From Yuukianura sp. NJ FZ-2021 (taxonomy: Eukaryota): a stretch of DNA of 64,000 bases. Shown piece after piece: positions 29,214-64,000 of this stretch. The translations under genes and the position numbers were made by a program. Every line of letters starts with the position of its first letter. Within the stretch, counting starts at the first letter, position 1. Below the pieces are notes generated by a model, which was not told the DNA's origin, made no database searches, and worked only from the letters and a program-made list of their open reading frames with translations. The stretch is taken from assembly GCA_046563655.1 (NCBI GenBank), contig CM102285.1:9982001-10046000 (forward strand). Reading direction: 5' to 3'.

Positions 29214-32200
29214 GTAAGATTAGTCCTTTGCTTTCCTTACTGTTTTCTCTTATTTTGGGATATTTTGGGCTTTTGGCTACTGATTCTCATTCCGGAGGGA
29301 GAAAATCCTTGGAGGACGCAGTCCTTGGTGTAGGTTGGAGAAAGCAAGGGAAGACGACGTAATCCTGGAGAATATCCCTTGCGCTTCTGTAAAACAAAGT
29401 ATTAGGGAACAAGGGATTTTGTACGTGCAAATGGTATGGGAAGCTCCTAGAATATTTTCTGGAAGGAGCCTGTGTCCGTGTGTGGGTGCGTCCAAGGAAT
29501 AAGCAGGGTTGACTTTCCCTTTGGTTTTCTTCCCGTCATGTGTTATGATGTACTGCTGGTGTCCCAGTTCAACCGAGCAGCGTAGTATCTACTTTCTTTC
29601 TTGGAGTTCTTGACCATAAGAAGGGAGAGAACCCTTGGAAAGTTAGAAAACATTAAGGAATGGGTGGGAGAAGACTATTTTGGAGTCGGGAAACTTTTCT
29701 ATCTTCTGACAATATCGCTCGGTTTGTGTAGTATAAAGGGAAAGTTTTTACACAAAGGGGATACAGAAGCCAATTTATTAAAGTTTTGTTGAGAACTTTG
29801 AAGGAAACAGAAATAAAAAGTTTGGGAGAAAGGCTTTTGAAAAGTATGATGTACAAAGACAACCATTGCTGCTGTGAAGAGGTCCTCGGTTGAGGTTGTG
29901 GATCTCTGGAGTCCAGATTCTGGTCGGAATGTTAATGTCAGTATTGGCCAAGATCGACTAAAGTTTGCTCTTTTTACGTAATCTCCTAGCATTTGGGGTT
30001 TTAAATGAATAGACTTTTTATTGATAGATAGTGCCATCACAAGGGATGAAGACTTTCACTGCAGAGAAAGCCTAGTGGCGTTTGTTAAGTTTTTGGTTGA
30101 TTTGTTTCCAACTTTTTTTTAGCAACTTCCTGCAACTCCCGGCAAAAAATGTAGTAAGTTGTCTGTTATGTTTTGGTCGTAAAAGGGCAATTTGATGGCA
30201 GGATCTTCGTGTTCCTTAGCTTTTGTCACTATTTTTCGGCTCTATTTGTAGCCTTATTTTATGCGTGTTTCAGAAATTTATTATCCATCCACTTTTGTTT
30301 ATGTGTAGCCATTGTATCCTTAGAATCTGACGTAAATATTGATTCCTGATTATTCTGCTTGGCGAAGGAAGACAGGGGAGAAAGTTTTGATTTCCAGGAT
30401 GGTGACATATGTTATTACTCCTCCCGCTGCTCCAGCCTAACCCTAACATGTTAGGTTAGGCAACCTAACGTAGTGCTCCTGCTGTCTCATCTTCTTTCTG
30501 GTACTAAACACGTTTCCTTTGCCTAAGCAAAATTTTCTCCTTTGCATGTCTCTCTCCGAGAGCCGCAAGATCTGTGTGAAATTTGTTGTAGAGTCTAAAT
30601 TCCCCGAATTCAGGACTTTTTGGGATGAAATTGGAGGAGATGCGTCTTCCGTTTTTGTTAGTATTTGACTAGGAAGTACGTGACAAGAGAAGTTCAGCTA
30701 GAAGGAGGACGCGGGGGCGAGAACAGACGAATATATGTATGTCTGAACTACAGCCAAATCGAATGTCACATTTTCTGGATACTGAAAACGAAGAATCAGA
30801 ACATGGGAGATGCTGTCTGTCACTGTAGCTCGTCAGAGGAAAGTTATGCCAAGGCTGGGGAAAGTCGCAAAAATTTCTCGGAGGGAAAACAAAAGTTGAG
30901 TTTTTTAAAACTTTTAAATCTTTGAATTTCATGGTTTTCAATGAGGAACTTATTTGAAATATGCGGTTTCTTTTTATCTAAAAGATGATTTGGCGGACTT
31001 GTGTTTTGTACTACGTAGGTAGTTTATATTGAAGTTGGGTTTAGGTTTGATTTTGCAAACCGAAAATCTGCCCAGAATTTTATGAAAATCGGCATGCGAA
31101 GTTCGGATTGGTTGGTTAGGGATTTCGAAACGTTTTGAATTTCAGGTCATGCTGAGATGTGTAGTTAACGAGCCTGCGTGGAAACGAATGTAAAATTTCC
31201 ATCCTTCTCTTCTTGGTGAAAGTCTTGGAGTGAGAAATTGAAGTGAAAGTCTCAGGATGGTGTTTTTAATTAAGAAATAACTTTTGTTTTATAAAGGATT
31301 GGTGTAAAATTAAGGACAATTCCGGGGCGGGGAAAGTTTTGTTAAAGTTAAATTACATTTCGCTCTTTAATTCAGTTTTCACTAGAAAACTATAGCTATC
31401 ACTACAGAGATTGTGTCTGATGTCTGTTTGCATGTCCGTCCGTCGGCGATATCTCGCAGCACAGTACTAAAAAAAAACTAGTTCTTATTTGCCTTAATTT
31501 GAAAAAAAAGACGAGGATTTTAAAAGTTTCACTTGGAAAAAGTTACACTGTGCTAAAACTGTTTGGGACTTGAGTTAAAATTATATATCAACTCTCAGAA
31601 AGAAAAAATTGAAAATGCATTCTGGCCTACACATTTTCTTTAAAGGTCATCCATATTTGAATTTCCGGACCATGAAAAATGGTTAGGGTTAGGTTAATGT
31701 CAATAGTAGTTTACTATGTAATTTGTTCCCGCTTCTCTGTTTCTGCCTCAAGTTGTGACGGTGTATTTGGGTTTTAATTTAATTTTAGGAAGTCCTCTTC
31801 TCATTGGAATGAAAATTTTCTCTTTTGTAGTCCAATTTAAGTTGGATTTTGAAGTGCTTAAATTTTGAATAACAATGACTTTAACCTCAACGGAGACACC
31901 ATTGGTTGGAACAACAAGAAATTTGTCCCCGAGAACAATAGAATTGACAAAGGACGAAGGAAATGGGGAATGGCTCTTTACGTCTAGTTAAACCAAGACA
32001 AAGCGAAGATGATCACAGGGGAAACGAAGAAGCTTTCTTCTTCTTGTTGGCCAGAAAGTTTTCCTTTTTGGGGTGCTTTCATTGGATTTAGAGTTGTTTT
32101 CCCTTTTTGGATTTATCCGCCTACTTTCATCTTTTCTGTGGTCCATTTCTGCTTTTGTCCCAATTTGCAATAGTAAGTGAAAGCATAGAAAGTTTTGGAG

Positions 32201-35200
32201 GATAGGCCTCTTCGGCTTTTGTCTCTCTGTCGTTACCAAGCATTACTCAAATTCTTATATTTATTAACAACTGACAAGCCCAATGTAAGGAGAGAAACTT
32301 TTGGAGAAAGTTGAGATGAAATACGACAAGTAATCAGAACAAGGGTTTTCCGAATTGCGAAACTTTGTTGAATGGAACTAATTTAAGATGTATTTTTATA
32401 GAGAAAGTTTGTGTTGGGAACAGATTTTTAGTGAGTAACAGTTTTAAACCTAAGGAAAGTTTCAAACTTGTGCTAACCGTTAGTAATTGGAGGTTATTGA
32501 ACATTTATTAAATTTTGCAAAAGCAAAAGGGTTTAGGCTGCTAAAGGGGGAGGAGGCTACGGTGAAAACTAAAGTTTCGTGTCACTTTTTGGTTGATTTT
32601 TTTGTGGGGTCAAAAGTTGAGTGAAAGGCGCTTCCTTTTATTAATTAGAAACTTTGTGTGGTTTTGGTTTGAGAGTTTTGAAAGGGGGAAGTGGTTCCAT
32701 TATGTTAGGTTAGGTTTTAAGTTAGGTTTTGTTGCGTAGATGGGAACGTGTCAGTCAAAAGTAAGCGACAAGGAGAAAGTCACTTCTGGTTTTGGCGGGA
32801 AAGTGAATTGGGTGCTGGGGTTTCGGCTAGACTAAATTCAACTGATGACAAAAGTGAAGAGGAGTCAAAGGGCACATGAAATGAAGACGATTCGCAATTT
32901 ATTTCTTGGGTAGCATGCTCAAATTGTGAGAAAAATGAAACTTTTTTGGTCAATTTAAAAAATTCATCTAACTTCCTTTTCTGGCAGTTAGAGTAAACCC
33001 GGTTTGTTGATCAAATGTCAAAACCAAGTTGGACGTTGACGTAAGCGTCACAGATTTGAACTTTAGATGTTTTAGGTAGAGCCATTTTTCGTGATGCGGA
33101 ATTCTGATGATGGATTTGAGTTTCAGAAATGAACTGCTGAAACTATTTGTCTTCATTAGGAAAATTTCTACTTTTCATTTTCATATTCAACCTCATCTCC
33201 TTCTCTAGAAATTTCTCTAAGCAAGGAAGGGCGGTAGCCTGCGTTTCCAGCCCCATATTTCTTCCTGTTAAATACAATTCTAAGGGAATTACTCGTCAAT
33301 CAAGATTTGAATTTAGATATATGTGAGCACTCAAAATAGGTTTTCTCTGTGAGCCTGCTGGGGAAAAGTAAAATGGAATATTGGAAGAAAGTGGATGCAG
33401 AAGAGTCAAGGGAAAGCAGAGCGAAGCTGTAATAATAACGATGGCTTTTTCCTTCTACTTTTCTCTTATTCTTTTTTCAAGGATTATCGGGCGTTACTTC
33501 CCCCTTTGTATCCGGCTAGGAGACGCCTACACCCGTTCTGCGTGATAGAAAATCCATTACCCGCTTTTTTGATTGTTACTTGTTTTTCTATTTCCTATTT
33601 CTTGTGTGAGCAGCAGCAGCGGTTCTTCCTCTGCTGTCTAAATCCTGTTTGAAAGCGTCAACTGAAGTTGATGGAACCTAGGAAGTCGAAGAAGCTACGT
33701 CTTTTAACGAAGTGTAAGAGACAGGGCTACTTAGATGGATGGATTCAGTTTCGTTTGTTACTAGGGTAGTTCTGGAGTGGAGAAAACAGGAAACTTAAGA
33801 AGTGCTTGGCAAAGTGTCTGGAAGATGCGTCCACTAAGTTGTAGCCGGTCTAGAGTGATTGTTATAGGCGTGGTGTTGATTTAACGTGAGATGGGTTTGA
33901 ACACTTAATAAGCTGTCTACTTAATAAGGTGGTGGTGTAATCGCTATGCAAATTACAAATTTAACATTCTAAGATCGTCTCGGAAAATCAACGCAAACCG
34001 GCAAATCCTACTTGAGCTAGTTTTTTTTTCATTATTCCGGAATCGACTGAATTGATCTGAACTCTGACCTGATTAATGCCTCGTTCGATTTTTTGGAACT
34101 CACGACGTGGTTGAATAGAATGTGTTTGATCAATTCAAAATTGAACAAATAATCTCTGCTTGATTTCCTGGTAGCGAATGAGTAACCTGTTTTCGGTGAA
34201 AGTTGCAGAACTTTTTTTCTGTGGCACACGACTTGGTTTCAAAGAACCCTGCTACAGTTGAACTTTTAATAATTTTGTTGTAAACTGAATTTCAAAATTT
34301 TGGACTTTGGATTTTGAGCTAGGTTGGCTTCGAAAGCGTGACGACAGGAATAGGAAGAAACCGGGGATTTTTCAAACTCTTTTTTTCCGTTGCGAGAATC
34401 TTTGGACTTTGTGATCTCTGATCCCTGACGTTTACGCTCCAATTTCAGAAAGTTGATGAGTTATGATTACATTTTCTTTCAGAGTCTCTAGTGTTCTGGG
34501 TTACTAACAAAAGCAAAAAAAAAACGAAGATTTAGTAGACGGACGACCATATAACTCTTTGAATGATATTTGCCTGTCACGAACCTTAACTTTATTTTCC
34601 TACGAGAAAAGAGAAAGTGGTTGACATAGTTTGGTTGGATTTTTATTTTTACTCTTTTTTAATTTAATTTTTTCAACTTTTGATTTTTTTTTGTGCATAT
34701 ATTCTAAATTTTCTCATGGATTTCAATTTTAAGAGTCCTTTTTGCATAGAAATTGAGCCCATGAGTGCATGTAGAGTAATACTTCTGCTCACAGTCCTAG
34801 AATACTCTTATTACTATAATTCTAATTCTGGATTCTGGAATTCTAATTTGGGATTTGAATTTCATACTCTGCTGTGGGATGGAATAATTTTCTACATTTT
34901 GTCAAGCTCATACTACTGTGGCGCTAAATCTGGAGTGAGTAGAGTAGCTAGGAATAGAAATGTACAGTTTTATACTAACTGCAGAGGAGAAAGTGAGTTG
35001 GGTGTGTTTAGTAAATTTGCATTGCGTTTTGCGTAATATGTTATTTTGAGTTAGGTACTAGATCAATCTGAGTATTATGCCTGAACAATTTAACATTGTG
35101 ATTCGGCTGCTCGTGATTTTAAGGACCAAATGGAAATTGTTTTAAAGTTTGTTTCAAATTCGAGTTGATAAAATGCTATAAGTTTGTGTAATTAAAAACT

Positions 35201-38200
35201 GGTATGGAGGACCAGAATTTTTTCGTTTTTAGAAACGTAATTTTGGCAAAGTTTCTTTAAGGTTTTCAATGTAACTGAAGAGAGAGAATAGGACGAGTGA
35301 AAGTTTCTAGTAAACTTTGCTAAAGTTTGTGCGTGTAGAAAGTTACTTTCGAGGTTTTTTTTTCTTCAGCTTTGATGATTTTTCTTTCTTCAAAGGTTTC
35401 TTGAGGTAAAAGAAATTAGAGCCGCCAAACTTTTCTTTCCTCTTGATTTAACACGGTGCCCTGAAATTTCTAAAACAAAAATACGTGTTTTAGGACATAA
35501 ATGGTATTTTGGCGTAGGATTTTGGTAGTGCCAGGTCGAGGTTGATTAATTATACTTTTTTGGGAATTCCGTGTACACAAGCGTTGTACGACACGGGAGA
35601 GTACGACACAACATGGATTTTGGAATTTGAAAAACCGTAGTTGTTTTGTTGAGATTAAAAAATGAAGCAGAGAAGTTGTAAAAGTTGTATTTTTTGAAGT
35701 TAATATTTATGGGATATTTCCTGACGTGCGTTGTTTTAAAATTACGAGGTTGTTGTTTTTGAAATTAATTACTTTTTGTTAATCAAGGCTTAATTGCAAC
35801 AAACATGCTTTCCCTTGATCACAATACCTCGCCGTTGCTCTTACTTTTAGTTTACATTTTTACATCTATGTGAGGTTGGTGAGGTCGTGAGCCACGGAAT
35901 TGTGTGTCCACTTGCGTTGCTCAAATGAGATTTGTTTGCTTGTTACGTTTGGCCAGTGGCATTTAGGAGAGAAAGTTCTTACGGTTAGGTTTTTCCGCTG
36001 TTTGTTTTTGGCCACTGCCTTGGATATAAAGTTGACTTTCTTGGACTTGGCTGCTCCCGAGGAGACATCCTGTTTCTCTGTTAGGTTAGCATTGGGAGGA
36101 TGTGAGAAAGTGATGTTGATACGATAAAGCTGACTGGAGGTCAAAGGACAATCTAACATAAGTCCACTGACCTCAAGGAAACTGCATGTTGTGCTGATGT
36201 GATGCTGTTGAAGTGTTGGAAGTCTAGTCGAGGTCATTGGGGAATTGGGATTGAGGAGAAAACGAGCAATGCATTTGAATCGAAGCGCTGAAAGAGCAGA
36301 ACCTCATTTGAAATCGAAAGTGAAAGCGGGAATTCAAAGAAACCAAAAATTTATACGAAAGGATTCTACTTGTGTTCCAAACTTTCAGCACAAGTTTTGG
36401 TTTTTCAATCATGGCAATGACGGAGCCCTTGATCTTTTTTCTTTGTCATTCTTTGAAATGTCAAAGGTCACTCCTATGTAAGGTTTAATATTTACCTTCA
36501 CTGATGCTATTTTTACAATTCTGAAGATGTGTATTGTTGCTGCTTTCTTTGAAGGAGAAAGTGAAATTCTACTGTGGGAGTAAGATGCCATAGTATCCAT
36601 ATCAGCGCTCGCCCACACTTCATCTTTAAGTCCTTATTAGATTTGAGTGGGCTTGTAGGAAAAAGAGCGGGAAAGTAATTGGTGGTGAAAGTTTGAAAAA
36701 TTGGGGCTACAGTGTTTATCACATTGTGATTCGTTAGACTAGACACATTAGAGTGATGACGAGGGCGTTGCCCGGACTGATCCCACTCTCTTCTGGGTCA
36801 TTTTCTGCGATTGCTTTTCACTTACTTTTGAAAATAGAAGTTTGATGTGGAAGGAGGTGGAACTATTTTTGGTTTTAGAAAGATAACTTTTCTTAAAATA
36901 AATTTTTGAACTAAAACGAGAATGAGTGACAAGCGTTGTCTCACTGGAGTTGTATTTTTTCCCCAAGTTGAAATGAAATTTAACTGTCTGCCTTCTCTTC
37001 CTGTGCCACTTCGTCCATTTAATCCTTCACTTTTCAAAAATTTAATTTCCCTTTCTCCGCCTCTGGCTTCTTCTTTTCTCTTGTAACATATAAAATGTGC
37101 AGCCGTTGTTCTTTTGTAGGCGGTTCTTATTCTAAGTTTCCGTCGATTCAATTTTTATTTCCAAAAGACTCATATATTTTTTGGAAAGAAGAAGATAGGA
37201 GCCAGAAGCCCTACTAAAAAGATTATGGGAAAGCACAAAGTCACACATTTGGAGAATTTTTTCTTTTCTTTCTTCCGTTACTTTTAGTAAAGAACGAATG
37301 CAAAGTACTTCCTCTGCGCTTTCTTTCCTCGTTTGCCTCTTTTTCTTTTGTGTGTGCGTTTTTTTCGTCTCCTTTGTGCTATTAGGTCGTGGGGAGGATG
37401 TATTTTATGGAGAATTGAAAAGAAAGCGTGCATGAGTAGCCTCATTGTGAGTAAGCGGCCTGGAATCCCATTGTCTTTTGGAAACATCAGCAGCAGCCTT
37501 GTGCCTTGAAAGATTTTCTTTTTAGGTTTAAGTTAGGAGAAAGTGAGGCATTAGAAAGTTAGACAAAAAAAGAAGAGGGGCAGGTAATGTTTGCTGAGAG
37601 TTGAAATCCAAAGGGATGGAAAAAGTATCTCATCTAATGAAATGATAGGCCTTCCTCTTGGAATGAACTTTTTCTTCTACTTTCGTTTTATTTCTAATAA
37701 TGGTTTCCTTCACTTCAACAAAAACCCGGGTTTCTATACACTCTATCTCAACTCCAATCACCACTGACCAAAATGGAGTAGCCTCCGATCAAAAACGATG
37801 ACCCGGAAAATGATATAGTTTTGCCCTATGGCTGTTGGAAAATTGTATTGGTTCATAAAGTAAGTTTTGACGAGGGTTGTGGAAAAATAGCTTAGGGTTT
37901 TGGGGGCTTTTTTTTACGAATCGGATTGGAGAAAGTTTCTTATTTTTTGTTTTAATTTTTTTGAAGAAAATTTGTGATCAAACTCCATTTGACGTAGGGA
38001 CTTAATTTTGAACCGATTTTTTTGTTAGAGGTTTTGTTTGATCCGTGATGCTTCTAATATTTCTTCTGTTGAGTTTTTCGTCTACAGTTGTAAAAGGAAA
38101 TTGGATGATTAGATTGAAATGGAAAAGGAGATTTGGGCAATTTGGGATACAAAGAGGTGGAAAAGACGGTGAAAGACGAACGGAAAGATATTTAGAGGGA

Positions 38201-41200
38201 AGAGAAGTTTTTGGGTTGACGAAGATTGAAGGGAAGTCGGCTCCAAGTCGACTTAGATAAAGTTGAAAGGAGAAAGTGTGAAAAGAACGTTGGTGGGAAT
38301 TCAGAGATTTGGTAAGGAATTGATGATTAAGTATTTGAAAGATGTGCTTTCCAATAAACTTTCTTTTCCCCATCACTTTCTTCTTGTACTTTTCTCTTCT
38401 CAAGCGAACTATTTGAATATTTCACTTTCCTTTGTTTTCTTTTTTCAAAGGAAATTTCGTGGCTTGCTTTCACTGCTTTACAAAAAGTAGAATGAGGTCG
38501 TTTTTGTGGAAAATGGAATTTGAAAGGAAGGGAAAACTGTATTGGAAAGTGTACTGGAGAATGATGAGATTAGTTTTAAAATTAATGCGTTCAGTTATGT
38601 TTGGATGTTCTGTATGTTGCTGGTCATGTGTCTCTGTTGAATCCAGGAGGACCATGACATTTAAGCCTACTGTACTGTCATTGTTCTCTCTTGAGTTTCA
38701 ATATCAAGATTGAGAGGAGTATGGTGGCTTAATGTCTTCGTTGTAATGAGCTTTAGGCTTTTGGAATCCACCAAAATGAGGAGATAATTCTTTTGGAAGA
38801 GACTAACCCACCAAAGAGCCCCGCCTAAAGTCTAACCTTCTGTGTAGTGCAAAAGGAATTTATAACTGTCACTTTTGGAGATGTGATAAAAATCAAATTT
38901 GGAGTAAATAGCCTTTTGATGTGATCTGATTACAATGGGAAGTGTGGGAATCTATGAAAACTAATTAGCAGCTCTATAACTTCAAAATGCCCGGGAAACT
39001 AACCTATGTTGAACCCATCGCTTTCCATTTCATACGTTGGTGGCATCGGAGTAAGGATTTTTAGCCTGTCGTGGATGATTTAAAGCTCAAATTCAAAAGT
39101 TTGGAGCCTCCTTTTTTGGCTGCACTACAGACGGCTTTTGAAGGTTATGTTAGGTTAGCCGATGCTACAGTTAAGTTAGGCTGTGCTGTTGCAGTATTGT
39201 GAGCGAAAGCTTTGAATCTTGCATGAACGCTACCTCAACCAAAAGAAAGCTCGACGTCGAGGCTCTTTTATTTGTTCCTTGTTATTTTGTCTCGTTAACT
39301 CTGTGGGTTGAAGGTGTAAAGGCGGATGAAAGCAAATAAAATGGCTCTGCGACTGGCTTTCACCAATTCTCTAGAGAGAACGTCACGTGGAATATGGTTC
39401 ACAGTTTTCTCTGCTCTGATTGTTTTTGATTTTTTTTAGGTTAGGTTAGCCGTGTAACTTTCTCTTTTTGGTAGGTAATAAAGTCTGACTTTCATGTAAA
39501 GGCTGTTAAGGTTCTGGACGGTCATTAGTGACTCTTTGACTTTGATATTTATTTGAGAAGCTATTTGTAACAGTCCATAAGGATTTTGAGCTAAAAGGTC
39601 CTAATGGCCTGCTCATGGATTCTTCTGTAGGAAATGTTCGTAAAATATAAGTTGGAGAAATTTGTGAATATGAGTTCCATTCCGGAACATTTACGATTTG
39701 GGGGAGAGCAATCAATAACAGAAGAGGAAACGGATTGGACTTGAATGGTTTCGGTTTGGTTAGACTTTTGCAAGTTTTAGAGTTTGTAGAAAGCAGTTTG
39801 GGCGAAAGTGGTGAACGTGTATGTCATTGTATAAATGCAAATTGGGGAGAGAGACAAGGAGCTGTGTTGTATGTGCTGGCAATTGCATCAGACTCCAAAC
39901 CCTGATTTATTTCTGTAGTCAAGTTGTCGACTGGAGGAGAAAGTCGCGTAGAAAGTGCTCGTGAGATGGGAGTAATAAATTCAATTTTGGCGGGTTGGTA
40001 CTTGAAAATTGGATGAATAGTAGTTGGCGGCGTGAGGATGTTATCATTAGGTTGGGTGGTACTGCCAGTTACATTCATGGTTAGGTTATGCATGGTAAAG
40101 AGACTGGACGATTTGGGGGAAATTGAGTAAAGGTCATTGACCTTTTGTAGTTTACTTTCTCTTACTAGAAGATTCTTAACATTTTTAGACTGATTTTTTT
40201 TTGAAATGATGGAGTGTGAATAGATTATCTAAGGTAGTGATCAGTATGTTAGTGTCAGGATTTTTTTGGAAGTGGATTGACATTCCATCGGAGAGTGCTT
40301 TCATGTAGCGTTTTTGGGTGTTGGTTCTCTTTTTATAGTAAGTAAATAGTGCAGAGTTCGTGATTGACGAGATGGGTGTGAAAAGGGGTTGGTGTATTTT
40401 GTGTAGTTGTAGTAGGAATTGTCACGACATGGGAGATTTTGGATTTTTTCGAACGATTTTTCCAGTGTTTTTGCTCTAAGGAGAAATTGACGAGAAATTA
40501 ATTGCCGCTAGACTTGCTTTCACTTTTGTAATTCCAAAGTTATTGCGTTTCTGCAGTGCAGTTGAAGGAAATCAGGAGTTATTATTCATTTAATTCAAAA
40601 TTTAATTTAATCAATTTTTTTTTATTGAGCTTGACTTCAGTTTGAGTGCGTACGGGAATAGTGAATTATGAAAGACTGTAGAATGGAGGCTGAGATTTTA
40701 ATCCTTTTCTGCTTCTTGAACTTCTGGCTCAAAGAGAAAGCGGGTGAAAAGTTCTAAGACGTAGGGCATCTGCATAGAAATAAGCTGAGTAAGATTTTTA
40801 GTTATTTTCGTGGAGACGGGAAAGTACTATTTTCCTATGGAAGAAGAATATAAAATAAAAGTAATCGCCTTATCACAGTCAGCTCTCTTTAGTTTTATGC
40901 TTCACCAATTGAGAAAGGCAGAAAACTCTGGTGGCGGCGGTAGTAAATAGGCGAAATAATGCTGACGGGCAAAAAGTGAAGGTTGGAAAGAAATTTCCAA
41001 AAGAGAAAGGAAAAATCGGATTTGGGAACAGTTTTTCTCTGGCACGGAAAAAGTTAGGCGCTGCTTTCTCTACTTTTCGTAGGTTTGCATATACAGGAGG
41101 CTTGAAAATTAAAGGAGTCTTATGGTTTATGGGAGCAATTGCTTTTATGGAGAGATAGCTTCGGGACTTGTTCTTTTCGGAAGGAACCTTATTATTAGTT

Positions 41201-53200: not shown

Positions 53201-56200
53201 TCTGTCTCCAACTTTTAATTCTGAGCCACATAGCAGCCCTTTCGTCGCTTTTCTACAAGTTCCAGTCTGCTGTGCTTTCACTTCCACTTTCACTTCGGGA
53301 ACGGATCACGTTTTTGTCATTGCAGAGATCCTAGGAACAGCAGAACTGTAGTCGACAGTGTCATGGCAAGCGAGCCCAGTTTCCTGTCACATCTGAACCG
53401 CACCAAAAATTCTTGAAGTTCGATACTTTTCAAAGTTGAACTTTTCGTACACCGAGGAAGTGCAACAACCCCGAAACCCAAAAAGACATCTTGCGGCTTT
53501 CTCCATTGCGGAGATTTTGAGAGACAAGAATAGGGAGAGAGTGATGGAAGAGGGTTGTAAAGTTAGTAAAAGTCAGAGAACTAACTGACAGTTTCATGAA
53601 ATGGTCCGTTGCCCTTGGCGTATTCTGAGATGCTACTTTCTCTTTTTATCTTTTTCACAAGTCTAAAAGGAAAAAGAATAAAGTTTTTTCGGGAGAACAG
53701 AACTTATGAGAAGTAAAGCGGAGAGAGCTAGAGCTGCTGGAAGCTTTGCTAAAAGGAATAGAGAGTGCAAAGTATCTGCATACAGAATGTGGATGATATG
53801 GTAATGCGGAAGGAAGGAGGCAGAAAGTGGTTTGTCAGGGGCTTAAAAGTCATGTGGAACCTGAAATATGGATGGAATGTTTGGTTTATCCTACTATGGA
53901 CAAGGAAATGCTAAGCTTTTGTCTTCTTTTGCTTTTTTCTTTCTTTCCAGTACTTTTGTCTCTTTTTGGAAGAAAGTTGGCGAAACTTTTTAGGAGTGTC
54001 AAGGGATTTTTGAAAGGGGGGCATGGGGTGGTGGGGATGGAGAGAATAATGGACCGTGTCAAAAGGGGGGCGGGGTGAGGAGATGGTGGATGCTTTTGTT
54101 AGAGGACGTTTGGGATGGAGGGAAATGAGCAATTATACAGATTCATGGACATTTATATGCATTTATACTGGGAGAAAGATTTTAAAAGTTGGAAGAAAGT
54201 TTTTATGAAGCGGAAAGCAGGAGCTTTTGTGTCTTTTAAGTCTCCAATGCTGCTGCGCTGTGAAGGTTCACTGAAATGGAAAATGAGTGTTTCTTAATCC
54301 CTAAATTTTTGTTTGTCTAAAAAAGGATTTTGAAAAGATTTGAAGATTTTAGAAGCGCTTTTGTGCTGGAGCGAAGATGAGAATAGGATTTAAGAGCATT
54401 AATTAAAAGTAAGAGTTGAGTTTGAGTTTTGATTTTGTTGATTTTAGGATTTGGTTTGATAATGGGCGGTGGAAGGTGCGTGAGATGGAGTAATTTAATT
54501 CCGTCGAAGTGGTTTAGTAGTGAAAGCATCCAGAGGCCCAAAAGTTTATAAGTTATTAACGTTAACTACCAAAGGGGAGGTCTAGGGTCTTTTGTTTTGT
54601 GTGTCTGAACTATTATTGGTTTCAGGTGATGTATTCTCCTTGTTTTCAGGCGGGGAAAGTTCACCCGAACGTATAGATTTATTTGTTTTGGTGGGTAGTA
54701 GGTGGGGTCCTTGGTGAAACTTTGTTTTCAGAATGGGAAAGTGATGAAAAGAGGAACGTAGCACACCATTTGACAATGAGAGTTGACAAGGGCTGGTTCA
54801 AAATCTAATTAACTCTGCTTTCTCCTTTGTTTGTTATTCTGTTGGGAGACAGATTTCTTTTTTCCATTTGAGAGAGAAACTTGGAAGATTTTCTGTTGTT
54901 AGGAGAAAGTTGCAACTTAGAATTCAATAGGGGACGTCCACGATTTCCTAACTTTAGGAGAAAAATGTCCAAGATCTGTTTTACTTTCTAAGGGCGAAGA
55001 GCAGTTTAAAGTTTTTATCTTGAGACAAAAGCGGAACGTACCCCGAAGACATATCAGAGTCTAGAAAAAAGAAAACTTTTCCTTAGAAATTGTGAAACTT
55101 TTGGAAAATTAGAAGAATCTGGGAAATCTGTGCGAATTACATGCAGACTAATTTTTGTGCAGATTTGATCTAAAATATAAAATGGGTACAAACACTACAG
55201 GCTCAAAGAAAAATACGAAATTGAAGGCAAAAAATTCTTTAAAAAATAAGGTTGTCGACTTCCGATGAAAGCGTTGCTTCATTTTCTGTCACTTTGTACA
55301 CTATGTTTTGAAAATTTTCTCTAATGATTTCTGACTAAAGATAAGCCTCTAAGCGAATGGAAAGTACCGAGTTTTGAGACGCAGTTTTAGTAATTTTGCA
55401 ATTTGGAATTTTCTGCGAAAAGTATGAAATCAAAGGACGTGATTGTTGGAATTGTCTGGCTAAGGGCAAAGGGCAGAAACTTTAGCGGGTAATTTTGTTG
55501 TGGTAGATTGACTATTATTGTTGGAGGGGAAGGCACACGAGGTAGTTGTTATTTCGCTCCGGTGGTTTGACAGGTATTGGGATATTTGCGGACGTGATTC
55601 AGATATAATACACCACCAAATAAATGGGCATATGAAATCCTTACCCAACTTGCACTCAATTTCGTGTTTCGTCTCCAATTTGGAGTGTGTTGTTGATGGA
55701 ACATAATATACCTGTTTTGGAGAAAGTTGTTCAAAAGTGTAATAAGCAAGAGAAAGATACAGGGAAACATTGTGGTAAGAAGGAATTGTATTTTGTATTC
55801 AAGAAACTTTGTAAGAAAAAATTTGAAAAGTTAGAGAAAACTTTTACGTTGGAAAGTGAGTTTAAGGAGGTCAAAATAAAATTCAATTGAATCGGTTTTT
55901 CTTCACAGAGGAGGATCTGAAAAAAAGTTGTTGGGAGAAAGTCAAAAGTAGGATAGTTTTTTTTAGGTTGCAATTTGGATAGGGAAGAAGACCGGAGGAC
56001 ATTTTGTGCTGGGTTTGAAATTTATGCAGGAAGTGAAAGCGGGTGAAAGTCTGAATAGATGAAATTGGCTTTTGAATTTGAGGACTCTTCTGCTGCGGAG
56101 GAGCTTCTGGAGGCGCGGGGATGTTGAAAATACAAGTTTCCTAGCATAGATTTTTTTCTTTTGCTTGTGGAACTCTCTCCTGGATTTTCTAACGTTTGAA

Positions 56201-59200
56201 AACTGGGAGAGACACAATGAGAATTCCTGGAGGCGAAAAAATTGGATTATGTAAGTAGCTCTTCTGTTCCTTTTCTCTATTCTTCTCATCAGAACCTCAA
56301 ATCGCATTAAGGTTCCCACTTCGTTTCTTCATTATAAATGTGAATACATTTATTCTAAGGACGGGGGAACTTTTCTAAAGGAAAAAGTGCTGACACAGAG
56401 TTACCTTGTTGCTATTGATTACAACAGGTAGCTCTTAGCACGATGAAACTCATTTTTCACACGTATTTTTCAATGCATTGGGTATTTTAACCTGTCGTTT
56501 TCTTGATTTGTAAACAAAATTCGGTTTAGTTGAGTTTTAATTTAAAAGTGAAAATTGGAAAGGAAAATTTATGTTTCTGGATTTGTAATTAAGTTAGTTG
56601 AAATATTTACGAAACTGTTGATGGAAAGTTTTGAAATCACAAACGAGTTTATGTTTGACTTTCTCCTCTTGACTGAACACAACATTGTTGACAATTTGGA
56701 GCTTGTTTGCCCTTCCTGCCTTGTTATTTGCAGATTGGCAACCAAAAGTGGCCCGAAGGGGCGAATCCGCGAATTTGTATGATGACAGAAAAGACGTAGT
56801 TTTGCGGAAGTGAAAGTTTGATCAAATGGGATCTAATGACCTTTGCTTGTGTTTTTGTTCAATTGGGTTTAGCGGGAAAGTTGAAATGTGGAGTAGAGGC
56901 CTTTGGAGTTCTAATTAAATGGACAAGAAGTTTATGCGTCAATTTTGGATTTCCCATCATTCGTCCAACTTAAGCTGCTCCTAATTCATTTTGAACTTCC
57001 AAGGAAAACGATCATTTCATTTCTTGAAGTTGCTTTAGTAGATCTCTCTCTCTCTCTTTCGTTTTATTAGAGAACTGAGGAAAGGGATTCCGTCTACGCG
57101 ATTTATGAGAGAACTGCAGAGGGAGAAAGTGGAAGTTGTTTTTGACTTTGGAAGAAGCAATTTCTCTGCTAGCCTAACTTTCCCTGCTTTCCTAAACCTA
57201 ACCTAACCAGAAGTCTCCGCACAAGAAAGCTAACCTAGAATGGAAACCTAACCTAAATGGAAAGGTGAAAGTTTAGAAGAGAGAAGATCAAGGCGATTTG
57301 GTCTAATGATCCCCTTTTTTCTGTTTTTCTTCACTATTTTCACATCGAGGTCGCAAATGTGTATTACATTAGTTTAACAACTCTGTATAGGGTTAAACTT
57401 TTTGACTTTTCTTTTGTTTCAAGGAAACTGAACTTTTTTGGTTGATCTTTTATCTCTTTAGTTTTTGTTTTAAATCTCTCCTCTGGCTTTGCGCTCGCTA
57501 AATCTGAAATCTCTAGAAGATGTGAGATGAGATTTGGAAAAGAGTTTTGAATTGTTGAGTTTTACAATGAAATTGAAATTGAGTCTTGTGTGCCTCTCTA
57601 GATTTTGAAAATAGGCAGGGTTTGCTTTGTAAGAGAAATTGTAGACGTGGAATTCGAGAGGCTAGGGAGAACTGTGATAGAATTTTATTGAATTTTTTTT
57701 AGTAGTTAAATGTTAAAGCATCAAATTTTGAAAGTTTGGTGGGGTCAGCGACCTTTAGTCTCACGTTATCGCCTTAGAATTTTTGGTAGCATAAAAACGC
57801 GTTTGAAAGGTACCTTTTGGACGAGAATTTATTTGAGTATCAAACTTTTGCAAAAGTGGGACATTAATTTAAGGCTAAGTTGATGTGAAATTGTCTTTGG
57901 GAGATAAGTCTTGAGCCTCTTTTGGTACTTCTTATGGTAGAATCCAATACAAAGTTAGGTTGGCTAGCGTAAGTTGGCTTGAGAGAAAGTTGGATCCCTG
58001 GAAGAAAGTTGGTGTGACTCTTAACGGCCTGGAATATATCAAGGGATCCCTTCAACTTGACTTTCCAGGGCCCTCTCTTATCTCCTGCTGCATCGTCTGG
58101 AGATCTTGGTACTTAAGGACGCTAGCAGGTTCTAATTATGTCTCTCCAAATATCTTCCAAAGAATAATTACACTTTGAGTTCCATTCTTTTCACCTGTTT
58201 CCCTTCCGTTTCTGCACTTTAGCTCTGCTATCACAGTCTTAAAAGGATTTTAAGAGAAAGGAATCCAAGGATCTTTAAACAATTTTTCTAAAGTTAATTA
58301 AAGAACTTGAAGGAAATGGGTGGATAACATCTCTAAGAAATGCAGACAATGTTAAGTACTTTCTATTTTTTTTAAAGTTAAACGTGAAAGTTACAGAAAA
58401 TGTTTAAAAAAATGCGAAAAAAAAAGTTTTGAAATGGCAATTTAGTAACTTTTTTGAAAAACTTACGCTGGTAGCTCATTTTCCTTATGTTGGAGTGAAA
58501 GTTGGCTTTATGAGTTTCCAGTTTTTGAAAAACGAAGTTGAAGTCTGAAATTTTGAAGTTGTAAACCCTCCGAGTTCTCCATACTTCATTACATTCCATA
58601 CGATTTGTGAAAAGACAATATGGGAAGTAAAGAAGTACGGAGGTCGTACGGTAGGGTGAAATTTCTCTCCAAATTTTGAATTCTGCTGAAATTTGCTTGA
58701 TCGTTTCCTGATGACGGTTGGATTTTGTTGAAGTGATGAGAAGGACGTGCACATTTACGTAAAGATCTCAGACTTTCACTTACACTTCTGCTGGATTCAG
58801 GGAAGAAAAAAATGTTTTAGTCTTTTTTTTAGTCGTTTGGGAAAAGAAGACTTGTGAAGTGGAAGATCTCTTTACTCTTTTTTTGTTTGCTTTCTCTATT
58901 GTAGTTGTCTCAGGTGTATTTAAGTTGGGATTGAAAAAAAGGCAAAGACATAATGACTTCAACACTGGGTTCTCCCTGTGCTATTTCCAAACCTTACGTT
59001 TCCTTCTTATAGTCTTTTCCATTTGTCTGATGATAGTTAAGCGTAGGGAGTTCTCATGGGACTTTGAAGGAAATTCTTCACATGGCTACTTTCTCTTTTT
59101 AGGTTCGGTTTTTCTGTTTCGTTAGGGATTGAGCAAGGGAAAAGTCAAAGAGGAAAAGTCTTTGAATCAATCTTGAAAAACGTGAGAGATCAGGGATGTT

Positions 59201-62200
59201 TTGTGTTTTGGTTAGAAATGGGAAATGCGACTTGGGAGAGAAAGTAGGTCAAGTTGCACAATATTGTTGCTAAATTTAATTCAAAACGTTTCCAAATTCT
59301 TTCTCATCCTTAAGGACTATAAGGCAAACTTGGATTTTAAAATAACACAAACTTACTTGTAAATTCAGAGTTTTAAAAACAAAAACGGAGTTACAAGAAT
59401 GATTCACGGTTTTAAAGTAAAAATTTAAGCGAGAGTCGCTGGAAGTGGACGGACCTCCTTGAAAAAGTACTTGAAATTTTGAAGTACTTGAATTTTCTTG
59501 GAAAAATAAGAGTTTTGACTCTGAAAGATTTTGAAGCGGAGACGCACTTGAGAGACAACAGACGCTGACGTTCTACTAATGCAAATGAACTGCAGTTTTC
59601 TACCTTTTTGACTACTTGGGGCCTGGACCAAAAAAATCGGTTTAGAGACGAAACCAAGTACTGTAAGGGAGAAAAAAATGGAGAAGGGAATGAAACCTAA
59701 GGCGACTTGAGCGTGTATGAGGTTTTGGCCGGGTCCAATGATTGGCTAAGTGTGGTTCATGCCATTCCAAATTTGTACAGACCCCAAAATAGAATTTTAT
59801 CTTGTAAGAAAGAGGGAAATTCGGTTTAAGAACAGAAGAAGAACGAGCCAGAAAGGATATTCTTAAGGGAAGGATTCAGTTTTCCTAAACCCCGAGAAAT
59901 GTAGGAGGGATGCATAAGATTCAAGTCCTATTCTGGAGCTGAAGGAGCCCAGACACCACCAGGGATAGGGAACAAAAACCGGGCAGCAGGGCTTGTCGTC
60001 CCCATTCATCTCCGGCTTGGATGCAAGAAGAAGACGAACATCTTCTGGCATTTCCCTTTTACTTTTTTTTTCTATCTCCTGATTTTTGGGGGTATCCGAG
60101 GATGAATCCTCATCCTCAGTGAGAGACACATATTGCAAACACTCCGCTCCGGCAGGAAAGGAGGCTTCACAAAAGCTTCGTCTGTTTCTGGAAATGGATA
60201 TGCCTCAAATCCTAGGAAAACGTTGTGCGTAAGAACAAAGTCAGTCTGGACTGTCTCTGTACTTTGTTTTGGTATGGACAGAAAAAATTCGGGTAGTACT
60301 TGAAGCTTAGTTTTTGTCGAGGATGTTGTTTCCTCTTGTGAATCCTTTGGTGCATTTTTTTAATTTTAAAACGGAAAAGGATGAAAATTATTCCATAGAT
60401 TTGAGACGGTATAGGGAAGAGAGGAGAAAGTTTGTATGAAAGCTTAGGCATTAGAGTCACAGGATGTCCGAAATGATTCTAGAAGCGGATGAGAGTTAGT
60501 TTGTGAATGCTTAGGAGCTCATGGGAAGAAGTCTCATCCGCTGGCACTTCCTTCCTTGGTCGTAGCTAGCACCACTTCTAAAGGCGAAACAACTTCTCAA
60601 ATTTCTCCCTCTTAAGAAAAAATTTCCCTCTGCATGAGGCAGGGTTTTATGTCCGCTTGGTGTCATATCATACCTAGTACTATGAAACTTACTTTAAGTA
60701 TAGGCTCCGGTCTGGATTTCTCGGAGTAATGCGGAGGAAAGAAGTTTTAGTTCATCCTGTGTGTTTTGGATGGAGAGTCATCTTTCTCTCTCATAAAAGT
60801 GTCGGGATTGGAAATTCTTCGATGAATTGTCTATGATCCAGCCAGACTAAAAGACACGTTTTTAGTAGGATTTTTTGTGCTGTCTGGCGTCTTCAACGGT
60901 TTCCGGAAGGAGAAAGTTGGTAGTCCCCGATCTTAAAAAAAAATAAGAGAAACGAAGTTAGAGAGACGACGTACATTTAATACATTTTTGTTCGAAAATT
61001 TTAGTAAGATTTTATTGGAAACTCTGAGTTTGGAGAGTTTAATTTGTTGAAAAACTCAGAATCTAGAAACTCGGTTGTAAATTTTCTCAGACGCATAAAG
61101 ACAGCTAAATCGAGTGTCTTCCAGGAAGAACATTTTAATCGGTTGTGTCATTTTACGCTTGAACTTTTTTTAAAATTTGACATTTTTTATAGTAGTAAAA
61201 CTATTACTATTAAATTTATCGAACCACAGAAAAAGACTTTTTAGGAACTCACAACAGATTAAAATGCTAGGAGCAGGCATTAGAATTTGGAATGCAATTG
61301 GTACTGGAAATCGAAACTTGAGTTTTACGAATAGCTCTACACATGCAGATCCACTTGGGTAAAGTTTGATGTCTTTTTTGGTAGTGGTTTTAGAGGGCTA
61401 GGATAAATGTAGCCATTCCTTTTGTAATTCGTCACACGTAATTTCTTTTTAGTGATGCAATTTATGGTTTGAAAGGACTTTAGCATTTGGTTGGACTTGA
61501 GGGAAGTGACCTTATAGTATTTGAGGTTGTTGAAGTAAAAGTAGTAATAGGAGTCTCTGCTCAATTGGTTATGCAGTGCCTGTGGTTTCCAAATTCTTTT
61601 CTCTGGAAGCACTTGGGAGAAGGATGTGGAGAAAGTCAATTTGCAGGATTTCATGTATGAAATTGGAATCTGGCTCTGGTTTCTCTTGGACATGGAGCTT
61701 TCCATAGGATATTGCAAGCCTAACCTCCAACGGTGGTTTCTCTACTCCCTTCGCATCGTCAGCTCTGTTTTGGACCTTATTATTTGCAGCTTCGCCAAGG
61801 AGCCAATTCGGGAAGGAGTAGAACTTGGAAGTTGAAATGAAAAGAAAGCACGGGTGAAAGGATGGTGGCTGTTACGTGGAGTGGCGAGAGACAAATAGAC
61901 CTGAGAAACATTGCTGAGGTTGATGCCAAGAATGGCCCCCAGTGGGATTTTCTCTTTGTTCTAGCCTCTCTTTTCAAAATTGTACACACATAGCCATAAG
62001 ACGCAATTGTTTTGGGCTAGAGGTGGCTTTTAGAATTGAGAATCCAAAATCCCCAATATGCTTCTCCATTTTTTTCGTTTCTTCTGCTGCGAGTTCAAAT
62101 GGAAATGGGGAAGGGACTTGGAGAAATTGAAGACGCTCGTTTGGGCCAAAGGAAAAGACGTGTTTTTTGTGTTCAGAATTTGTCTCTTGGAGACTTCTTG

Positions 62201-64000
62201 GTTGGAGTGGAGATGATTGGATGTGTCAGGGTTGGTACGAAGGAGAAATAAACCTTCAAATTCCCAATGCCCCTTGACAGGGCCCTCCCAAACAGCTGGG
62301 ATCTGTCTTGGCCCAATAGAAGTTCGAGAGACTTGGGAAATAAATTAAATAGAATAATTTAGGGTTAGCAGAACTAACGACAAAATTAAGGTCTTTCGGT
62401 AGTTTCAGCGGGGAGAAGAAATTGGTCTAAGTACTTGGCAGCGAAACCTAAATCTATATAGATGGATTTGTAGAAACCGGGAAAAATAGGCTGGCCTATA
62501 CCCTCTGTTTTTTCAATTCAGTCCGTGTGCTGCCAATAATTTGTGTCATGGATAGCAAAAGATTGCGAGAAAAACATTTCTAGGGAGGGAATTTTGCGAA
62601 AGCAGGTGAAAGTTGAATCAGTTGGCGCGAAAAAATCCAGCTGAAATCAGCATAGAATCACTACGAGAATAAACCTTGTCACACGGAGATGACATTTGGG
62701 ATGACAAAAGATGTGAGAAAAAGCCTTTCTTCCTGCCTGTCTTCTGCTCTGACTTTTGCCCGTGTTCTCTTGAATTTAACTTTTCTTCTAGAAAGTCAAG
62801 AAAAGTTGTCCTCCTGTGTGACATGTTTGAAAAAGTGAGCAGTGTAGGTCATATCCCTTTTCTTTCTAGGAACAACTTTCGTCAAAGTTTGTTGATTTAT
62901 ATGTCTCCCGTGTGAGTAGTTATCCCTGTGGTGAGAAAGTGCCCAATTTTAGGCATTAACTGCGAAAGAGAGTCTAACGTAACCCAGAGGAGGAGAAAGT
63001 CTATGCCTGAAAACGTAAAAGTAGTTTGTATTTTGGTGGATTGAAGCAACGAGGGACTAATTAATTTTCCAAAGTTGGTTAGAGTTGTAAAAGAAGAAGG
63101 GAGGTTGCGTGTGTGATGCCTGGAGGAATGGGAAAATGGGAGTGGTCGTCGGGAAGTTTCATTACTATTCTGACAAGGCATCTCTTACGCTAGTAACTCA
63201 AAAGTAAATGCGGGAAAGTTCTTTTTTTTAATAAAGAGAAAGTTTGTTTTTTTCCCGGTGGGCTCTTTGATTGGTAGAGTAAATTGGAGTGTAAAGGAAC
63301 AAACCCTAAACCTGAAAACTTTGAACTTTTCCGCTTTTACTTACACTTTGATTTGATTTTGGAAAATTTATAGACCCGTCTCAGTACAATTTATGAGAAC
63401 TCGAAAGCTATCATCCAAAACCAACTCAAGTCGTCCTTACAACTTCTAGTGAAGAAGTAAAAGAAGCTTTGTGAAGTTAGTAAGAAGTAAAAGTAGAAAA
63501 ATTAAAAGTAGTAAAAGTAAAATTCCTGAAATGTGGAACTTGGAAGACGTTAAAAAGTAACTGTTGGATTGGAATTGGTCTGAGGAGAAAGTGGAGAAAG
63601 CTATAATGTTTATTGGTATGGAAGAGATTCCTTTGGATTGAAGACTTTTTGTGTATCTAAATTGCCAAAGTTGTCCTCTGTGTTTGTACTTTCTTCGGAT
63701 AGAAAGAGTTTGTGTGGATTGGATCCGATTCGGATCCAAGTGTCTTGAGTCAATTAAAAGTGTAATGGATGCAGTGTCTTGGAGGAAAAGCAGAGGATGC
63801 CCTGTCTTTGGTCCTTATTGGTATTCTAGTGGCTGGGATGATAATGTTACTTGAAGCAGTTAAACATTTTCTGGAAGGTTGCTAAGCCAAGATCCAGAGA
63901 AGCCAGAGTGTGTCAGTTGATTTAGGAGTTGGTTGGAGGTAAAAGGCTTTAAAGACAAAAAGGAAATGAATGGTTGGACGTGGGCTGGTGTATAAATTGT
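29214..64000 (+). other. Apparent giant mib1 intron (>34.7 kb), non-coding
   Basis: Begins with the strong donor AG|GTAAGA in mid-ankyrin. No recognisable next mib1 exon, other conserved gene or transposase ORF was seen. A persistent excess of G over C and T over A on the + strand is consistent with + strand transcription. Confidence 0.7.

Follow-up and report, generated by a model that had tools for sequence, protein, structure and literature searches.

Homotypic clusters of transcription-factor sites extend over hundreds of bases to a few kilobases and are bunched within enhancers or silencers. Short words also recur across longer domains, as in the periodic A/T clusters of C. elegans germline-gene introns and the GA-rich MSL/CLAMP recognition elements of the Drosophila X, both of which are thought to set chromatin state. 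Drosophila Ken, a Ken/BCL6-type zinc-finger protein, has the consensus GNGAAAK, although this consensus was not found in the literature searched. The in-vivo motifs of BLIMP1 join a GAAAGT core to a 5′ triplet that is either strictly GTG or a degenerate GNG, and G-to-C changes at two guanines eliminate BLIMP1 binding while sparing that of IRF (Doody et al., 2010, PMC2938208, available in part). In their accessible parts, one further source gives AAGAGAAAGAT as a predicted Blimp-1 site of mouse Pdcd1 (PMC3949569) and another contains no BLMP-1 site sequence (PMC4072510). In mouse, miR-1-2/133a-1 lie inside a mib1 intron (PMC3777988), and in flatworm miR-1/133 lie near Mind bomb genes (PMC4405270), both sources again being available in part.

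The window analysed here, a stretch of 64 kb, contains the 5′ part of mib1 (mind bomb 1) and a very long intron that continues past its end (Table 1). The last mib1 exon in the window ends at 29213 (CCAG followed by GTAAGA) and reaches MIB1 residue ~616 of ~1017; no later mib1 exon is present from 29213 up to 64000, bearing out the giant intron proposed in an earlier reading made from the sequence only. The sense strand of this intron has a strong G+T bias (GC skew 0.22; TG 2711 versus CA 1362) which is absent from the shorter mib1 introns, and the 1.2 kb intron shows no GC skew.

Two microRNA precursors, mir-133 and mir-1, are embedded in the giant intron with 16 kb between them. In both, the mature sequence is present and the Rfam covariance-model score exceeds the gathering threshold. 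These minus-strand genes were overlooked in the earlier reading of the window. As at the mouse and flatworm loci, mir-1 and mir-133 are associated here with mind bomb, lying within a mib1 intron, and the linkage is an ancient one; the accessible parts of the two accounts (PMC3777988, PMC4405270) describe no comparable motif array. Neither MEF2-like words (11 in the giant intron and 11 elsewhere in the window) nor CArG words (2 in the giant intron) are enriched.

Table 1. Features of the 64 kb window, with positions counted from its first letter.
Feature	Position	Strand	Details
Exact copies of the 8-mer, first 27 kb	18408, 20786, 20833, 21847	+, −, −, +	
MITE-like element outside mib1	20701..21920	.	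1.2 kb, TIR-bounded
mib1, 5′ part	24418..29213	+	~13 exons matching arthropod MIB1 residues ~1–616
1.2 kb mib1 intron	27859..29089	+	7 degenerate sites (4 +, 3 −) versus 0.4 expected
Short palindrome, word in both arms, ACTTTCTCTTC ... GAAGAGAAAGT	28259..28297	.	11-nt arms
Giant mib1 intron	29214..64000	+	5′ splice site at 29214; 3′ end past window
Second dispersed word, GTTAGG(TT)	30449..61719	.	30 loci in giant intron; resembles TTAGG telomere repeats
mir-133 precursor	42344..42416	−	RF00446, 60.4 bits (gathering score 55.5); antisense to mib1, in giant intron
Close pair	43154/43164	−	
Close pair	48125/48134	−	
Sole exact tandem doublet, GAGAAAGTGAGAAAGT	49886..49901	+	
mir-1 precursor	58570..58649	−	RF00103, 59 bits (gathering score 45.6); antisense to mib1, in giant intron
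Close pair	63585/63594	+	

A sharp 8-mer enriched in the long mib1 introns

The word GAGAAAGT/ACTTTCTC has 62 exact matches in the window, compared to 4.91 ± 2.28 (largest 12) in 100 dinucleotide shuffles, and GAGAAAGT is the top-ranking 8-mer of positions 24001–64000, where it occurs 39 times and T8 37 times. Between 29214 and 64000 there are 52 exact copies, 37 on the plus strand and 15 on the minus strand. The sequence-only reading had estimated ~38 and ~14 by eye, and the positions it listed are correct to within one base. A low-order Markov background, which that reading had named among the explanations that would overturn it, fails: in simulations of the giant intron at orders 1–4 (200 per order) the observed counts are never reached. 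At orders 1, 3 and 4, the 37 plus-strand copies compare with 2.5, 6.7 and 11.9, and the 15 minus-strand copies with 1.0, 2.6 and 4.9, respectively; the highest counts in any simulation are 23 (plus) and 10 (minus). The claimed variants are also present, GTGAAAGT in 19 plus-strand and 6 minus-strand copies and GGGAAAGT in 14 and 3.

Using the degenerate word G[AGT]GAAAG[TC] (GDGAAAGY), we find 120 sites in the giant intron (84 plus, 36 minus), including the 52 exact copies of GAGAAAGT. The long mib1 introns together hold 127 such sites over 36 kb, or ~1 per 280 bp, and are 6- to 16-fold enriched, whereas the upstream 20.7 kb is at chance (5 sites versus 5.0 expected); within the window, the word keeps to the long mib1 introns. 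The upstream stretch itself contains introns and spacers. Onset of the word in the lengthening mib1 introns, as proposed earlier, is evident in exact copies at 27339 (−), 28165 (+), 28259 (−), 28290 (+), 28381 (−) and 28522 (−). For the first 27 kb, the reported scarcity holds but the number does not: there are four exact copies instead of ~3, and three instead of two of them lie in the MITE-like element.

The profile of the word is sharp over eight positions, G-[A>T>G>>C]-G-A-A-A-G-[T>C], and positions 3–8 are near-invariant. The perfect word occurs 52 times in the giant intron versus 3.6 expected at order 1. Position 1 is G in 52 copies and C in 4, position 2 (N) is A in 52, T in 25, G in 17 and C in 2, and position 8 is T in 52 and C in 13. 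Single-base variants at positions 3–6 are at background (GACAAAGT, 0 versus 2.1 expected; GAGGAAGT, 4 versus 2.0; GAGAAGGT, 0 versus 2.0). Outside the word, position −2 is mostly A, and the base immediately following is most often T (24 of the 62 copies).

Placement, flanks and relatives

Sites in the long mib1 introns are distributed as if placed uniformly at random (gap CV 0.89 versus 0.99 ± 0.09; variance/mean of 1-kb bins 0.70), with no periodicity or clustering seen among them and no tandem arrays of the word. The ±20 nt flanks of the 127 copies have a pairwise identity equal to the column-permutation null, in agreement with the earlier statement that the flanks are unrelated. That the word belongs to neither a satellite nor a transposon is likewise upheld by negative self-similarity, tandem-repeat and transposon-protein searches: the giant intron is 0% self-similar at E<1e-5, just 2 of the 62 copies fall within self-similar DNA, and the 40 ORFs scanned (of 113 of at least 70 aa) contain no transposon protein remnants. 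A sensitive self-BLAST yielded 317 weak matches, compared to 164–213 in six simulations; its best match scored 46.8 bits.

The copies could be relics of a decayed repeat family, such as MITEs carrying the word in their subterminal repeats. The MITE-like element, which holds three of the four exact copies outside mib1, ends in 24-nt inverted repeats that are 92% complementary and include GTGAAAGG, and it also has ~45-nt subterminal repeats. It shares 31 12-mers with the intron where upstream controls share 13.8 on average and 23 at most, an excess that is weak evidence given that the controls are mostly coding. The intron, however, has neither the self-similarity nor the related flanks that such a family would leave, and its best self-matches are weak, making this origin very improbable. 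Copies of a dispersed repeat, MITE or satellite would share sequence outside the core or form tandem arrays, and the copies here do neither. The flanks cannot be aligned, yet 52 8-mers are intact, and the copies must therefore be maintained by selection or continually created, and are not the outcome of decay.

It is also conceivable that the word is functionless here. It could be a neutral by-product of mutation or of some process that generates sequence, or else a k-mer preference of long non-coding DNA throughout this species' genome. The uniform, Poisson-like placement is in keeping with this, and so is the MITE-like element, in which four degenerate sites (3.3 per kb) give the same density as in the intron. 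The word is also accompanied by another dispersed one, GTTAGG: GTTAGGTT is found 15 times on the plus strand and 6 times on the minus strand of the giant intron, versus 1.3 and 0.3–0.4 expected, and the GTTAGG loci lie nearer to GAGAAAGT than chance. The relatives point the same way. None of 43 metagenomic mir-133 loci is enriched for the word (highest 1.5 per kb, versus 4.2 per kb here over the same ±2 kb), and the closest relative found, L043, has two sites in 4 kb. The distance from exon to mir-133 is 744 nt in L043 and 13.1 kb here, and much of the intron may therefore be lineage-specific DNA. Set against these points, we know of no neutral process that would write so sharply defined an 8-mer, in both orientations, among unrelated flanks. 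Single-base departures from the word stay at background, the upstream 20.7 kb is at chance, and there is no self-similarity beyond simulations, nor are there tandem arrays or, in the ORFs scanned, transposon protein remnants. On balance we consider a neutral origin rather unlikely; even as a genome-wide quirk, the word would be a sign of an unknown process writing a specific 8-mer into unique DNA.

Strand symmetry and RNA-level readings

The degenerate word is equally enriched on the two strands of the giant intron. At order 1, the 84 plus-strand sites compare with 9.06 expected (9.3-fold) and the 36 minus-strand sites with 3.81 (9.4-fold), while at order 3 the enrichments are 4.1-fold and 4.9-fold, respectively. 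The excess of plus-strand copies arises because the giant intron has a strong skew of G over C, and equals the excess predicted from that skew alone; the 1.2 kb intron, which is unskewed, has 4 plus-strand and 3 minus-strand sites. Equal enrichment on both strands is the expectation for orientation-independent selection on duplex DNA, unlike a sense-RNA signal, and therefore favours a double-stranded DNA word and disfavours an RNA signal.

Such a signal would consist of GNGAAAGU elements in the mib1 pre-mRNA, bound by an RNA-binding protein that helps such a long intron to be packaged or spliced. In line with this, the word is confined to the introns of a single transcription unit, the sense strand carries 70% of the copies, and the sense G+T bias of the giant intron, absent in the shorter introns, hints at a strand-specific constraint. 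The antisense copies are nevertheless as enriched as the sense copies, which disfavours the sense-strand protein array envisaged in the sequence-only reading, and both the near-even split in the 1.2 kb intron and a sense excess that skew alone predicts tell against it too. Specificity over eight positions is, moreover, unusual for RNA-binding domains. We judge an RNA-protein signal to be improbable.

That reading had further suggested pairing between sense and antisense copies, and a decoy function towards U1. RNA duplexes that compact the intron would be compatible with the presence of the word in both orientations and with the one 11-nt-arm palindrome, but complementarity stops at the 8-mer and the flanks are at the permutation null. 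The best inverted repeats (20–34 nt, 70–95%) are mostly kilobases apart, and long-range RNA pairing elements, with at least ~15 nt of complementarity between sense and antisense copies, were rejected as a match. A role as U1 snRNP decoys could draw on the 4 of 37 plus-strand copies that continue as GTRAG. On the giant intron's sense strand, however, words resembling 5′ splice sites are scarcer than expected (AGGTRAG, 0 versus 4.6–6.6 expected; GGTRAG, 8 versus 14.9–21.0), and the base found most commonly after the word is T where a splice site needs a purine. Both the duplex and the decoy explanations are thus extremely unlikely. With no AGGTRAG on its sense strand, the giant intron also lacks recursive splice sites.

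Comparison with Blimp-1-type binding sites

The word matches the published consensus for BLIMP1/PRDM1 sites. It displays the same G-N-G-A-A-A-G-T architecture (PMC2938208, available in part) and contains the GAAAG(T) core, with T or C accepted after GAAAG, and both of the guanines flanking N are required here. So are the two guanines that correspond to positions 3 and 9 of the consensus, whose replacement by C leaves a site bound only by IRF. The strict GTG class does not fit, the order at N being A > T > G > C. In the mammalian BLIMP1 sites quoted in the accessible text N is T or C, whereas here it is mostly A, such that the degenerate GNG class alone is compatible.

The IRF/ISRE element (AANNGAAA, in which GAAA(C/G)T is tolerated and tandem copies spaced by 6 bp are frequent) was rejected. 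The IRF-type variant GAGAAACT (GAAACT) is not enriched (4 versus 3.3 expected), G is required at position 1, and gaps of 12 nt or less number 7 versus 5.4 expected. Of the Blimp-1/PRDM1- or IRF-type DNA array suggested from the sequence, the former half is thereby retained as the best-fitting role and the latter dropped. Ken/BCL6-type sites share the core G-N-G-A-A-A-(G/T), but their consensus leaves the final T unspecified, and no STAT-like TTC lies upstream of the word here.

On this basis, we suggest, with a probability of about 0.4, that the array is a domain-wide set of putative binding sites for a Blimp-1-like factor. The word G-N-G-A-A-A-G-(T/C) would be a free-standing double-stranded DNA recognition site with the profile of a Blimp-1/PRDM1-type C2H2 zinc-finger repressor, and selection would maintain a high and roughly even density of such sites along the long mib1 introns in which the antisense mir-1 and mir-133 genes reside. 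A Blimp-1-like factor may then bind in either orientation along the whole intron and set the chromatin state of the domain. A possible outcome is that the muscle-microRNA locus is repressed, or primed, at set times or in particular tissues, independently of the mib1 transcription passing through it.

The uniform placement of the sites speaks against a Blimp-1 reading, being unlike the bunched, enhancer-sized clusters of ordinary binding sites. The preference for A at N and the lack of enrichment at the metagenomic mir-133 loci and in L043 count against it too. BLIMP1 sites occur one or a few to a promoter, whereas the 127 putative sites here are scattered evenly across 36 kb of intronic DNA. 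Like homotypic clusters, the array consists of many copies of one site, facing either way and situated in the non-coding DNA around regulated genes, but those clusters are bunched whereas the array keeps an even density for 36 kb or more. With the C. elegans A/T clusters and the MSL/CLAMP elements it shares a short word repeated across a long domain, although the words are different and the array is without periodicity. We know of no description of such an array from the literature searched; among the matches listed, the word occurs only in primers and unrelated uses.

If the sites are functional, a classic point-acting repressor site would be deployable as a uniform, orientation-free coating over an intron of 35 kb or more. 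The array would then offer a sequence handle both on how, in an ancient conserved arrangement, a host gene is regulated independently of the tissue-specific microRNA locus antisense to it, and on how compact genomes manage rare giant introns. A bolder possibility, which we regard as doubtful, is a 'domain-coating' code, in which lineage-specific expansion of a Blimp-1-type site, at even density across tens of kilobases, would let one zinc-finger factor switch the chromatin of the whole intron, either controlling the antisense miR-1/miR-133 apart from their host gene or marking long introns in a compact genome generally.

The stretch is also present in the sequencing data of two studies (four DNA runs). 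Among the 40 differences listed, out of 935, none falls in an exact copy of the word, where about 0.5 would be expected. The data include a contig from a ~2% diverged 'organism B', which differs at 207 letters and by 63 gaps along 10.7 kb.

Abundance of the word and its setting in mib1

Counting both orientations, the window has 62 copies of the dispersed 8-mer GAGAAAGT (the word), where 100 dinucleotide shuffles gave 4.91 ± 2.28 (largest 12). Between 29214 and 64000, the giant intron of mib1 (mind bomb 1), 37 copies read on + and 15 on −, close to the ~38 and ~14 that the sequence-only reading had estimated, and as read on the + strand the word is the top 8-mer of 24001–64000 (39 copies; T8 has 37). 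Markov simulations of this intron (200 per order) gave 2.5, 6.7 and 11.9 copies on + at orders 1, 3 and 4 (simulated maximum 23) and 1.0, 2.6 and 4.9 on − (maximum 10), such that no low-order model tried explains the counts. The excess is a solid observation, more striking than chance under every model applied. Only four exact copies in the window lie outside mib1, three of them within a MITE-like element.

Exons of mib1 were placed by tblastn with three arthropod MIB1 proteins. They start at 24418 on the + strand, and the final exon in the window ends at 29213 (CCAG/GTAAGA), around residue 616 of ~1017; the best protein matches are to arthropods, the first being a springtail (92% across one exon). 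The same search found no further mib1 exon between 29213 and 64000, so the giant intron spans at least 34.8 kb and continues past the window, in a genome with introns of 50–300 nt. Within it, antisense to mib1 and 16 kb apart, lie mir-133 and mir-1, both overlooked by the sequence-only reading; we take it that the mir-1 mature region (...GTAATGAAG...) may be one base off the usual miR-1. The mouse miR-1-2/133a-1 cluster is described as sitting within a mib1 intron (PMC3777988) and flatworm miR-1/133 as lying near Mind bomb genes (PMC4405270), and the linkage is an ancient arrangement.

Features of the window and distribution of degenerate sites, G[AGT]GAAAG[TC]
Feature	Coordinates	Strand	Details
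Upstream region	1–20700		5 sites; 5.0 expected
Presumed compact proteasome-lid-like gene	~13.8–14.2 kb	−	By-eye ORF translation
Presumed compact mitochondrial-carrier-like gene	~15.5–16.7 kb	−	By-eye ORF translation
MITE-like element	20701–21920		1.2 kb; 24-nt terminal inverted repeats containing GTGAAAGG; ~45-nt subterminal repeats
Presumed compact bestrophin-like gene	~22.3–23.3 kb	−	By-eye ORF translation
1.2 kb mib1 intron	27859–29089	+	7 sites; 0.4 expected
Giant intron, first part	29215–42343	+	44 sites; about 10-fold enriched
GTTAGG(TT)	30449–61719		30 loci, e.g. 32704–32728, 47670–47688, 57195–57252
mir-133 precursor	42344–42416	−	Rfam, above gathering threshold; mature sequence visible
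Giant intron, second part	42417–58569	+	62 sites; about 10-fold enriched
mir-1 precursor	58570–58649	−	Rfam, above gathering threshold; mature sequence visible
Giant intron, third part	58650–64000	+	14 sites; about 6-fold enriched

Profile, spacing and likeness to Blimp-1 sites

A profile built from the counts of every single-base variant of the word is sharp: position 1 is mostly G (52 copies; A has 15, T 8 and C 4); position 2 has A in 52, T in 25, G in 17 and C in 2; positions 3 (G) and 4–6 (A) have variants only at background; position 7 is G; and position 8 has T in 52, C in 13, G in 9 and A in 7. On the 5′ side there are just two purine-rich positions, and farther flanks are background-like. 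The degenerate form occurs at 127 sites in 27859–64000 (88 +, 39 −; mean gap 281 nt), with spacing indistinguishable from uniform random (gap CV 0.89 vs 0.99 ± 0.09; variance/mean in 1-kb bins 0.70) and neither periodicity nor an excess of close pairs found among them. The MITE-like element contains four such sites, a density of 3.3 per kb that equals that of the giant intron. That the word reflects an unexplained habit of the sequence, neutral or genome-wide, seems to us unlikely, if far from negligible.

Motifs bound by BLIMP1/PRDM1 in vivo are described as a GAAAGT core after a strict GTG or degenerate GNG, and BLIMP1, but not IRF, loses binding when two critical guanines are replaced by C (Doody et al. 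2010, PMC2938208). The word fits this arrangement, reading G-N-G-AAAG-T with both critical guanines required, although N is mostly A here and T or C in the mammalian sites quoted in that paper. AAGAGAAAGAT is given as a predicted Blimp-1 site in mouse Pdcd1 (PMC3949569). Of the Blimp-1/PRDM1- or IRF-type DNA array proposed from the sequence, the first half fits the profile, whereas IRF-type GAGAAACT stands at background (4 vs 3.3 expected). A second difference is that the sites in the window are not bunched. The Drosophila BCL6 homologue Ken has a similar consensus, GNGAAAK. Our preferred reading (probability about 0.4) is that putative sites for a zinc-finger factor of the Blimp-1 type form a domain-wide array, independent of orientation, across the mir-1/mir-133 host intron; that anything binds, which factor it is and what the array is for are what we infer.

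A second dispersed word, GTTAGG(TT), is reminiscent of the arthropod-type telomere repeat TTAGG in short runs. The window contains 22 copies of GTTAGGTT where 2.4 are expected, and GTTAGG loci lie closer to GAGAAAGT than chance (median 98 vs 215 nt, P about 0.002).

Strand symmetry and origin of the copies

Strand asymmetry is strong and uniform along the giant intron (GC skew 0.15–0.33 in every 2-kb bin; TG 2711 vs CA 1362; T>A). The shorter mib1 introns do not have it (GC skew 0.03 when pooled; 0.05 in the 1.2 kb intron), so simple transcription-coupled mutation bias is not its explanation. CpG observed/expected is 0.69 in the giant intron and 0.91 upstream. With such a skew, base composition by itself would put about 70% of copies on +. 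Relative to expectation the degenerate form is enriched 9.3-fold (+) and 9.4-fold (−) under order 1, and 4.1-fold (+) and 4.9-fold (−) under order 3; where skew is lacking, in the 1.2 kb intron, its sites split 4 + / 3 −. Equal enrichment in both orientations is the prediction of orientation-blind selection on duplex DNA and is not predicted by a sense-strand RNA signal, and we regard an RNA-binding-protein signal as improbable. Two further RNA roles suggested from the sequence, pairing between sense and antisense copies and a U1 decoy, did not hold up and are very improbable. Complementarity between copies never reaches past the word; a GTRAG continuation follows only 4 of the 37 + copies, T being the commonest next base, and the sense strand has fewer 5′-splice-site-like words than expected (AGGTRAG 0 vs 4.6–6.6; GGTRAG 8 vs 14.9–21.0). 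No canonical recursive-splice-site candidates were found on the + strand of 29214–64000.

The claim that the flanks are unrelated, and the word neither satellite nor transposon, agrees with several results. Self-BLAST of the giant intron at E<1e-5 covered 0% of it, and of the 62 exact copies just 2 fall within self-similar sequence; a sensitive search gave 317 weak matches (top 46.8 bits) vs 164–213 in six simulations. Tandem Repeats Finder returned only tiny arrays, among them one two-copy GAGAAAGT doublet, and the 40 longest of 113 ORFs of at least 70 aa had no Pfam matches. In pairwise identity the ±20 nt flanks of 127 copies match a column-permutation null (pairs sharing 18 or more of 40 positions: 101 vs 101; maximum 24/40 vs about 22). 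Flanks so unrelated imply so much divergence that few 8-mers should have outlasted it, and 52 intact copies with unenriched one-off variants argue that the word is maintained or continually created. The same evidence speaks against inheritance from a decayed element, and decayed repeats are a very improbable source of the word.

Relatives and sequence variation

An exact-match scan with the mature mir-133 sequence gave 43 metagenomic loci, at none of which is the word enriched (highest 1.5 per kb, most near expectation); the ±2 kb around mir-133 in the window hold 17 sites (4.2 per kb vs 1.6 expected). The closest relative found, L043, a 4022-nt contig piece, carries the last mib1 exons (74–80% identical) and then mir-133 (hairpin 93% identical) at 143–2076 in reverse-complement coordinates. 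The distance from exon match to mir-133 is 744 nt in L043 and 13.1 kb in the window, so the intron has hugely expanded in the window lineage or contracted in L043. With 2 sites in its 4 kb, L043 does not share the enrichment; this count and the short distance suggest that the enrichment, and much of the giant intron, may be lineage-specific. In place of GTTAGG, L043 has a different dispersed word, TAGTTAGT; downstream of mir-133 it too has G>C skew (0.16–0.32). The exon at 29090–29213 is single in the window, and its L043 counterpart is apparently split by ~130 nt.

DNA runs of two studies include the stretch, one about 2% diverged. Across 30101–50100, contigs of the best-matching sample show alternative letters and small indels at hundreds of places per run, which suggests high heterozygosity or pooled individuals.
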